From: Eledone cirrhosa
Taxonomy: Eukaryota
Length of the DNA: 64,000 bases
Reading direction: 5' to 3'
Assembly: GCA_964016885.1 (NCBI GenBank)
Contig: OZ024743.1
Span: forward strand, 346,022,001 to 346,086,000
The notes below the pieces were generated by a model, which worked only from the letters and a program-made list of their open reading frames with translations, was not told the origin of the DNA and did no database searches. Of the stretch, positions 18,001-19,892 are shown one piece after another. The position numbers and the translations under genes were made by a program. Positions within the stretch are counted from its first letter, which is position 1, and each line of letters begins with the position of its first letter.

Positions 18001-18710
18001 AACGGAAACAATTAAACGAAATTTCATTTCTCACTCTTAGCACGGCTGTTACTTAAATATAAGTATGTATACGTACTTACATATATGTATACAGACGTAC
18101 AGTAGTATGTATATATATATACATACATGCACACATATATATGTACGTATGGATTACCGAACATTTATTATAATGCTCGTTTGTTTGTAAACATACATCC
18201 CGAATTAAACCGTACAGTGTCTAGCAACCATCGTTGCTCTTTTGTTCAACACTGACAAAGGAACGATGTACTAGTTTCAAGATTATTAGCTAACGTCAGC
18301 AACTTATACCTTCCTGCCAGATGGTTGAACGTCTGAAAGTATATACTTCCCCTTATTCATATTAACGGCTGAGCAGACTAATTTGCATATCGAGTGAGTT
18401 GATCGGCCGGGCGCACCGAAAACGATAAACAGGAAAATATGAAACGAAATTTCATTTCTCACTCTTAGTACGGCTGTTACTTAAATATAAGTATGTATAA
18501 GTTTGTCAGTGTTGAACAAATGAGCAACGATGGTTGCTAGACACTGTACGGCTTAATTCGGGATTTTTGTTTACAAACACACCGAGCATTATAATAAATG
18601 TTCGGTGAATACATACGTACATATATATATGTGTGCAATGGATGTATATATATATATACATACTACTGTACGTCTGTATATATATATGTATGTACGTATA
18701 CATACTTATA
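18001..18710 (-). mobile_element. Family X: full 428-bp monomer, partial repeat and inverted segment, flanked by (TA)n
   Basis: aaacgaaatttcatttctcactcttag occurs at 18014 and 18442. 18506-18705 is an inverted copy of about 18058-18255. HHR at 18263-18303 has core CTGACGT. Confidence 0.9.
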
Positions 18711-18901
18711 TATATATATATATATATATTTATTTATATATGTATATATGAATATATATACATATATAAATAAATACTAATAGACATACATACGTATATA
18801 TATATATATATATATATATATATATATATATATATATATATATATACATATATATATATATATATTATATATTTATATATATATATATAAGTTGTAATAA
18901 C

Positions 18902-19400
18902 ATGAAAACGAAATTTCATTTCTCACTCTTAGTACGGCACTTACTTAAATGTAAGTATGTATGTATACGTACATACATATATGTATACAGACGTACAGTA
19001 GCATCCATATATATATATATATATATATATATATATATATATATATATATATATATATATATATATATATATATATATATACATACAGGTACACATACAT
19101 ATATGTACGTATCAGTTTAGCGGACGCTTATTATAGCGCCCACTTTGTTCGTTTGTAAACAAACTGAACAACCTGAATTTATGCCGCACGGTGTTAAGGC
19201 AACCACGTCACCTTTTTGTTCAACACTGACACAGGAACGATGTACTAGTTTCAAGCTTGTTAGCTATCATCAGCACCGTATACCCTTCTGCCAGATAGTT
19301 GAACGTTCGAAAGTATATACTTTCCTTATGAAAATTAACGGCTGAGCAGTCTAATTTGCATATCGAGTGAGTTAAATCGGTCAGGCGCACCGAAAACGAT
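18902..19400 (-). mobile_element. Family X monomer with an internal (TA)n expansion
   Basis: Colinear homology to 18010-18427. Confidence 0.85.
19237..19279 (-). ncRNA. Intact type I hammerhead ribozyme (family X)
   Basis: acggtg-CTGATGA-t agct aaca agct t-GAAA-ctag-TA-catcgt. Stem I is 6 bp, stem III is palindromic and the site is GUA. Confidence 0.85.
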
Positions 19401-19593
19401 GAGTATACATACATACGTATACATACATACTTACATATATATATATATATATATATATATATATATATATATATATATTATATATATATATATATATATA
19501 TATATATATATATATATATATATATATATATATATATATATATATATATATATATATATACATATATATATATATATATATATATATATATAT

Positions 19594-19892
19594 AAACGGA
19601 AAAATTGAAACAGAATTTCATTTCTCATTCTTAGTACGGCTGTTACTTAAGTATAAGCATGTATATGTACAGACATACAGTAGTATGCATATATATATAT
19701 ATATATATATATACATATATATATATATATATATATATATATATATATATATATATATATATATATATATATATATATATATATATATATATATATATAT
19801 AATATATATACATACATGCACACATATATATATATGTACGTATGGATTCACCGAACATTTATTATAATGCTCGGTGTGTTTGTAAACAAACA
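19594..19892 (-). mobile_element. Family X 3' fragment
   Basis: Homologous to 18001-18195. A further 57-bp fragment lies at 38372-38428 in the opposite orientation. Confidence 0.8.

Follow-up and report, generated by a model that had tools for sequence, protein, structure and literature searches.

Family X, a non-LTR retrozyme family of Eledone cirrhosa with likely U3-type promoter boxes and the insertion signature of Penelope-like elements

The genome of Eledone cirrhosa contains a family of non-coding, head-to-tail repeats with a unit of approximately 430 to 480 nt, here called family X. The explanation that we consider probable is that family X is a non-coding retrozyme which likely has a U3-type RNA polymerase II (Pol II) promoter, passes through a circular RNA and is inserted into (TA)n with machinery borrowed from Penelope-like elements (PLEs). 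It is a new family of a known kind, the non-LTR retrozymes, to which it adds U3-type boxes and a twin-arm signature involving two fixed cDNA start sites, end A and end B. Within the window, the whole 64-kb stretch of DNA that was analyzed, the sense strand of the hammerhead ribozyme (HHR) in the copies between 18001 and 19893 is the minus strand. The copies and their parts are as follows.

18000 to 18708, no strand assigned: twin insertion of subfamily X1, with (TA)n on both sides
From end A (18000) to 18502: arm 1 of this twin, 1.16 units
From end B (18708): inverted X1 arm of this twin, head-to-head with arm 1
18001 to 18060, minus strand: "tail" of approximately 60 nt between the cDNA start sites end B and end A, with a hairpin inside
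18250 to 18322, minus strand: type I HHR with extended stem I and damaged core; cut site after 18269
18378 to 18389, minus strand: octamer-containing box TATGCAAATTAG
18368 to 18372, minus strand: TCAGC box
18339 to 18345, minus strand: TATA box; predicted start at approximately 18315-18314
18890 to 19434, no strand assigned: copy of subfamily X2, one full unit from end A and a short inverted arm from end B
19362-19351, 19345-19341 and 19319-19313, minus strand: putative promoter boxes of the X2 copy
19243 to 19273, minus strand: intact HHR core, CUGAUGA...GAAA CUAG UA, with stem II closed by U.U
19594 to 19893, minus strand: 5'-truncated copy from end A, no HHR, internal (TA)n expanded
4193 to 4897, no strand assigned: twin insertion with a 403-nt first unit (HHR partly deleted), a second pass and an inverted arm from end B
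9065 to 9453, no strand assigned: twin insertion with a short arm from end A and an inverted arm
9173-9222 and 9262-9292, plus strand: putative promoter boxes and HHR, respectively, of that inverted arm
38372 to 38429, no strand assigned: tail-only twin insertion whose arm from end A is short and whose inverted arm from end B is very short

An earlier note on the window had placed family X at six loci and read it as retrozyme-like. All six were recovered by blastn with window positions 18014-18441 as the query, and that reading is supported. The period of 428 (18014/18442) held, as did the period of 403 (at 4204/4607) and the HHR deletion there. Two loci do run through a complete unit and restart it, but the count of two was too low, since a third such locus lies at 18890-19403. 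That note did not mention the pair of fixed 3' ends, the inversion of the second arm or the promoter boxes. The monomer proved to be non-coding, as claimed, with no ORF within or joined to the units. The claimed lack of tRNA A and B boxes was likewise borne out: ARAGORN found no tRNA in the 64-kb window, and the only A-like and B-like boxes in family X were mismatched and either in the wrong order or approximately 280 nt apart, so the ordered boxes of a tRNA-derived SINE are not present. TRF and a general repeat search missed the unit, (TA)n having dominated their output. Rfam (E<=1) gave, among the 150 of 284 matches listed, only microsatellite-driven miRNA matches and no hammerhead. The window also contains a 200-base assembly gap (N) at 32939-33138.

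The genome-wide BLAST search that the earlier note had proposed revealed a high copy number and partial tandems. At least 2,966 family X candidates were found in the 3.0-Gb genome, and the 39 best full-length matches, the window copy aside, showed 93 to 94% identity. Of 80 stretches of 10 kb sampled at even intervals from the four largest contigs, 8 contained the family, which scales to approximately 30,000 loci; the corresponding interval of 15,000 to 64,000 was computed on nine loci, one of them belonging to the related family Y. The family divides into subfamilies X1 (approximately 432 nt) and X2 (approximately 480 nt), with a mutual identity of 77%. Detailed comparisons drew on a sample of approximately 86 of the approximately 30,000 loci, selected for high identity, from which 52 X1 and 26 X2 loci were analyzed after duplicates were removed. 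Divergence from the column majority was 2.0% for X1 and 0.9% for X2, values that are lower bounds because the loci were chosen by identity.

The cDNA arms of family X have two predominant start sites, approximately 60 nt apart. Among 128 uncensored arms, 56 started at end A, 61 at end B and 11 elsewhere, giving 117 of 128 at A or B. Of 120 A or B starts, 106 abut (TA)n, which makes target-site duplications unreadable. From the 41 head-to-head pairs we set aside 2 at a locus edge and 6 with an unclassifiable start, and of the other 33, 29 joined A to B, 3 joined B to B and 1 joined A to A (p=5.5e-6 versus 0.5). The sequence following end A at 120 sites was the next unit at 68, (TA)n at 47, and short AT-rich, poly-C or edge sequence at 5; an ORF lay downstream at 0 of the 120. 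The head-to-tail junction is therefore reproducible, and the possibility raised in the earlier note that the unit is always the pseudo-LTR (pLTR) of a coding PLE is contradicted. The purified PAc protein of the PLE Poseidon cuts and extends both target strands in vitro and initiates reverse transcription at two internal positions in the RNA, one on either side of the tail (PMC11167929). The A+B twin arms of family X are this PLE "tail on one end" signature. Taken together, the two start sites, the A+B pairs and the lack of an ORF after end A indicate that family X is non-autonomous and moves like a PLE.

Coding PLE families of the same genome also have two (TA)n-joined ends, 60 nt apart in the L112 type and approximately 65 nt apart in the L125 type. 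These ends, with the start sites and A+B pairs of family X, provide direct genomic support for borrowing from PLEs, and we regard it as very probable that the retrozyme is mobilized by a PLE. A candidate partner is the L112-type PLE, in which an 852-aa open frame lies between two pLTRs, with a 60-nt tail and young copies (an L112-type sequence also occurs in the window at 22224-22478); its tail continues into coding-region sequence, unlike that of family X. Pfam gave a weak RVT_1 match for the L112 ORF and none for three other ORFs, and Atlas pointed to RT/GIY-YIG clusters. PLE fragments number approximately 33 per 800 kb by tblastn, a rough figure because three of the six queries were out of frame, and none of the PLEs compared shares sequence with the X unit.

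Several further structures of this type were observed. A coding PLE remnant at window 14364-15942 (minus strand), also found at L125 and L106, has ends approximately 65 nt apart, and its pLTR contains the host distal element described below (14760) and an HHR-like core (14640). Beside (TA)n, inserts that are perfect or nearly perfect palindromes occur at window 3975-4135, 37741-37860, 37905-38015 and 2813-3694, and these likely represent short insertions with twin arms from other families of the PLE type. The inversion junction is identical at three X2 loci of a single contig (L185, L186, L188), which is either a recurrent microhomology switch or a duplicated locus.

The HHR of family X is a canonical, covarying type I motif laid out as a 6-bp stem I, internal loop, distal stem, CUGAYGA, stem II, GAAA, ACUAGU and the GUA cut site; stem III is palindromic (ACUAGU), as had been reported. 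A pattern search allowing four substitutions gave 136 HHR copies, among which the core was kept in 127 and the core plus stems in 103, and stem II was closed by U.U in 133. Stem I pair 3 in the pattern-found copies was U.G in 60, G.U in 56, A-U in 3 and C-G in 2, and distal stem pair 4 was A-U in 75 and U.G in 45. The weak points of the motif are a weak stem III and the U.U at the base of stem II. The claim of one HHR per monomer stands as a family trait but not for every window copy: the core of the headline unit (the 18001 copy) is damaged (CUGACGU, 18299-18293), the HHR of the 4204 copy is partly deleted, the 19594 and 38372 copies end before it, and the HHR at 9262 has a G.G mismatch beside the cut. 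The best HHR in the window is that at 19273-19243, where the GUA site lies on the minus strand as predicted (19245-19243, cut after 19243). Two body hairpins differ in sequence between X1 and X2 with pairing retained. Folded as a circle, the unit beats shuffled sequences (z -7.5 and -10.9, 40 shuffles each); antisense folding is also strong (z -7.0 versus -7.5 for sense, 40 shuffles each).

Upstream of the HHR, family X has the octamer box TATGCAAATTAG, followed by TCAGC at a distance of 16 nt and TATATA at 42 nt, all three exact in 67 of 111 pattern matches. These were compared to the promoters of host small-RNA genes (L031-L071, L212-L240). Host Pol III-type genes have the octamer box at -76 to -79 and TATA at -30/-31 in the seven loci used (three U6, the top U6atac, MRP and two tRNA-Sec); left out were five of six U6atac loci without upstream boxes, which are likely retrocopies, four weak tRNA matches, and U6 array copies that were near-identical or interrupted. 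In host U1, U2 and U5 genes (12 of 36 fetched loci, the remainder mostly array copies) the octamer box is absent, and a TATA-like box at -30 is accompanied by TCAGT or CCAGT at -55 to -58. In all eight U3 loci, TATA at -31 is preceded by TCATT at -56 and, near -73, by an octamer-like box. The U3 genes contain internal T4 runs, lack a terminal T-run in four of five cases, and in this resemble U2/U5 and differ from Pol III genes; from this pattern, and against the general background on U3 transcription, we take the host U3 genes to be transcribed by Pol II. A distal element, TTACCTCCCTT, at -257 to -288 is common to host small-RNA genes; this element, near -260 in the host, was absent from family X and present in family Z (see below). 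RNase P (L212) has a Pol II-like box and no octamer box.

The octamer box is of the kind found upstream of host Pol III genes and, in a variant form, at host U3. When aligned on TATA, the octamer block of family X coincided with that of U3 at shift 0 in four of five loci and at -1 in one, and its TCAGC was in register with the TCAGT of host U1/U2/U5. The TCAG-type boxes depart somewhat from host U1/U2/U5 (TCAGT or CCAGT), being TCAGC in family X and CCACT in family Y. The promoter-like boxes of family X are invariant between X1 and X2, and since their neighbors are almost equally conserved (18 of 20 and 36 of 38), no focused selection is seen in this pair. The TCAG-TATA pair was absent from PLE-type HHR families. 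In insects, according to the available portion of PMC1761439, a single proximal element is used, with minor variations, by both polymerases. The predicted start would fall within the distal stem I, at 46 to 47 nt on the 5' side of the HHR cut, and transcription by Pol II would explain RNA that passes the T-runs near end A.

Similar boxes occur in other hammerhead repeats of this genome. In families Y, V and U, the HHR core is preceded by an octamer box, which is followed by a TCA-like box (+16) and a TATA-like one (+41 to +43); family T has only the octamer and TCA-like boxes, before an HHR-like core. A stretch of 864 kb in total contained 71 octamer-like sites, 19 of them with the three downstream features complete; these 19 are copies of a few families rather than independent events. 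Family Y is a relative of family X (57%), and the blastn similarity of V, U, T and Z to X1 was limited to short motifs. Family Y is approximately 467 nt long with a tail of approximately 70 nt and inserts into X copies (L097:730-1255; L010:2098-2972; L205); the X/Y chimeras at L010 and L205, considered as template switching, were read instead as nested insertion into TA. Family Z is a very young 310-nt tandem of near-identical units with a canonical HHR (L075:3400-4780, L080:8460-9800, L084; BLAST matches in 6 of 80 random stretches), in which the host distal element and the 3' strand of stem I overlap, and CCAGT and TATA lie at U1 distances. Family V is a partial tandem of approximately 306 to 336 nt with octamer, TCA and TATA boxes (window 22546-22985, minus strand; L103, L019), the HHR of its window copy being damaged. 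Family U has a 436-nt period and several octamer-like repeats, and families U and T are found at L134:4800-5430 and L128. More HHR-like cores, probably belonging to other PLE pLTRs, lie in the window at 10094 (minus), 20273 (minus), 21117 (plus), 22149 (minus), 39877 (minus), 39999 (plus), 41751 (plus) and 51942 (minus). That families X, Y, V, U, T and Z have all captured a host Pol II snRNA promoter, and are self-promoting circles primed by a Penelope protein at two internal sites, one per target strand, is a tentative generalization whose chances we place slightly below even.

On these sequence comparisons, family X probably has a functional Pol II snRNA-type promoter, with proximal boxes at Pol II spacing and no distal element. 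If the boxes were instead vestigial or incidental, family X would be transcribed solely by read-through from its flanks, in keeping with a review in which retrozymes seemingly lack promoters (PMC7761336), with the missing distal element and with the imperfect TCAG box. We consider this improbable, because dinucleotide-shuffled versions of the unit yielded the octamer box in 14 of 20,000 and octamer plus TATA in 0 of 20,000, the box spacing is exactly that of U3, families that otherwise cannot be aligned retain boxes in a comparable position ahead of the HHR, and family Z carries the full set of three U1-type boxes at the distances seen in the host. A U6-type Pol III unit, comprising the octamer box and TATA and terminating at a T6 run just before end A, was the reading first considered, and it was dropped after the comparisons with U3, tRNA-Sec and X2. 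The octamer box is indeed closest in sequence to that of Pol III genes (12 to 14 of 17) and X1 has T6 near end A, but the octamer-TATA spacing is 42 rather than the 46 to 48 of the Pol III loci, whose octamer block requires a shift of -4 to -6 in seven of seven, X2 has only T4 runs in place of the T6, and a U6-type RNA would stop before end A and lack the promoter, while most copies span both. This reading is thus very improbable.

The proposal that the family X unit is a solo pLTR of a coding PLE rather than an independent element draws on its PLE tail, inversions and HHR and on the relation of Xenopus retrozymes to pLTRs (bioRxiv 10.64898/2026.07.22.740005, available portion). It deserves hardly any credence, as the PLE tail enters the ORF region (L112) and the X tail leads into the next unit or (TA)n, never into an ORF, and as the PLE fragments near family X at L005, L022 and L028 are set apart from it by (TA)n. 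The nature of the template is a closer question. The earlier suggestion of a circular or oligomeric template is compatible with the data. Arms ended at the HHR cut in 3 of 77 cases (4.4 expected), and this lack of a pile-up indicates that the template is continuous through the cut; a pile-up apparent in the first 30 loci was gone in a hazard test. Units of the same locus were discordant at polymorphic sites in 22 of 116 comparisons for X1 and 18 of 168 for X2, versus 8,340 of 21,218 and 4,235 of 15,033 between loci, and adjacent X1 units seldom had private changes in common (11 of 233), as expected if tandems are made at insertion. The within-locus discordance of 11 to 19% is nevertheless more than private mutation alone would yield, so not every tandem came from one monomer circle, and multimeric templates, template jumps or recurrent CpG change contribute too. 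That the template is instead a linear, uncut, multimeric read-through RNA, with the same PLE mobilizer, is favored by PAc, which does not need HHR cleavage for insertion and whose main substrate in vitro is uncut RNA (PMC11167929). Units of the same tandem often differ at polymorphic sites (L110, L017, L003, L198), and the weak stem III and U.U at the stem II base recall the slow axolotl HHR_Amex2 in the available text of PMC7229834. A linear template, however, would give copies no longer than its source, and 7 of 131 arms reach 3 to 4.5 units; arm ends are not concentrated at the predicted start (7 of 77 versus 4.0 expected, p=0.10); and related retrozymes of coral, mussel and axolotl yield circles, as that same text reports. 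We therefore hold the linear template to be rather unlikely and lean toward a circular one, which we judge about twice as likely as a linear multimer.

Family X resembles the metazoan non-LTR retrozymes, described from coral, mussel and axolotl (PMC7229834, available text), in its non-coding tandem units of a few hundred nucleotides with one type I HHR each and no LTR, its short palindromic stem III and strong self-pairing, and the presence of PLEs in the same genome; its U.U at the stem II base is that of HHR_Amex2. Compared to what the available portions of these accounts quote, its unit is at or above the range (430 to 480 versus 150 to 450 nt), its copies are mostly 0.5 to 2 units rather than long arrays, and its (TA)n targets with unreadable target-site duplications differ; the two-site tail, A+B twin arms and U3-type boxes are not described in those portions (PMC7229834; bioRxiv 10.64898/2026.07.22.740005). 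The papers of 2020, as far as their available text goes, assumed read-through transcription and regarded PLEs as no more than a strong candidate mobilizer, and retrozymes have been tied to PLEs by co-occurrence and pLTR similarity (bioRxiv 10.64898/2026.07.22.740005, available portion). Like EN+ PLEs such as Poseidon (PAc, PMC11167929), family X has partial tandems, 5' truncation, an inverted arm, an HHR, a tail at one end only, two internal reverse transcription starts and AT-rich or (TA)n targets. Unlike them, it has no ORF, and so no RT and GIY-YIG frame between pLTRs; its HHR is canonical rather than minimal; and its tail leads into the next unit and measures approximately 60 nt versus the 30 to 40 quoted in the available part of 10.1101/2021.04.23.441226. 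Newt satellite 2 is also an HHR tandem repeat with internal snRNA-type promoter boxes; its Pol II promoter is experimentally shown (Coats, Zhang, Epstein 1994, as cited in the available portions of PMC2220036 and PMC6765202), whereas that of family X is inferred from boxes that are its own host's (U3-like). The schistosome Sm-alpha HHR SINE has the same order of promoter then HHR and needs a tandem to transmit its promoter; it uses Pol III, in contrast to family X, which has no ordered A and B boxes (PMC6765202, available portion). A literature search on octopus and cephalopod hammerheads, retrozymes and Penelope found no description of family X, and one on snRNA-type promoters in invertebrate retrozymes or hammerhead repeats found none; the supplement of PMC7229834 may list a related family.

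The life cycle that we propose for family X would begin with Pol II starting at the octamer, TCAG and TATA boxes approximately 47 nt 5' of the HHR cut and reading past the T-runs into the next unit. With two HHRs after the promoter, cleavage, probably as a dimer, would free a cut-to-cut unit that contains the next promoter, and host ligase would close it into a circle; judged from sequence, promoter activity, self-cleavage and the RNA circle are all predicted properties. Copying proceeds from two internal sites approximately 60 nt apart, one arm each, into (TA)n, which probably reflects PLE protein priming on both target strands. The arms terminate at many different positions and run past the cut and the predicted start without accumulating at either, extending up to approximately 4.5 units. 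Rolling round a circle would restore tandems, so that promoter-bearing loci with two HHRs would be renewed.

Two puzzles of animal retrozymes are the source of their high RNA levels and the identity of the enzyme that mobilizes them, and both become testable from sequence, the one through a predicted start with mutable boxes and the other through a two-start insertion signature. The signature of one arm per start matches PLE biochemistry without any sequence in common, and a 430-nt non-coding circle would be a minimal in vitro substrate for a PLE protein. If the generalization to all six hammerhead families is true, built-in snRNA promoters would be a general trait of animal retrozymes, as in newt satellite 2, and mobilization of retrozymes in trans by PLE proteins would be proved at the genomic level by the A+B twin arms.
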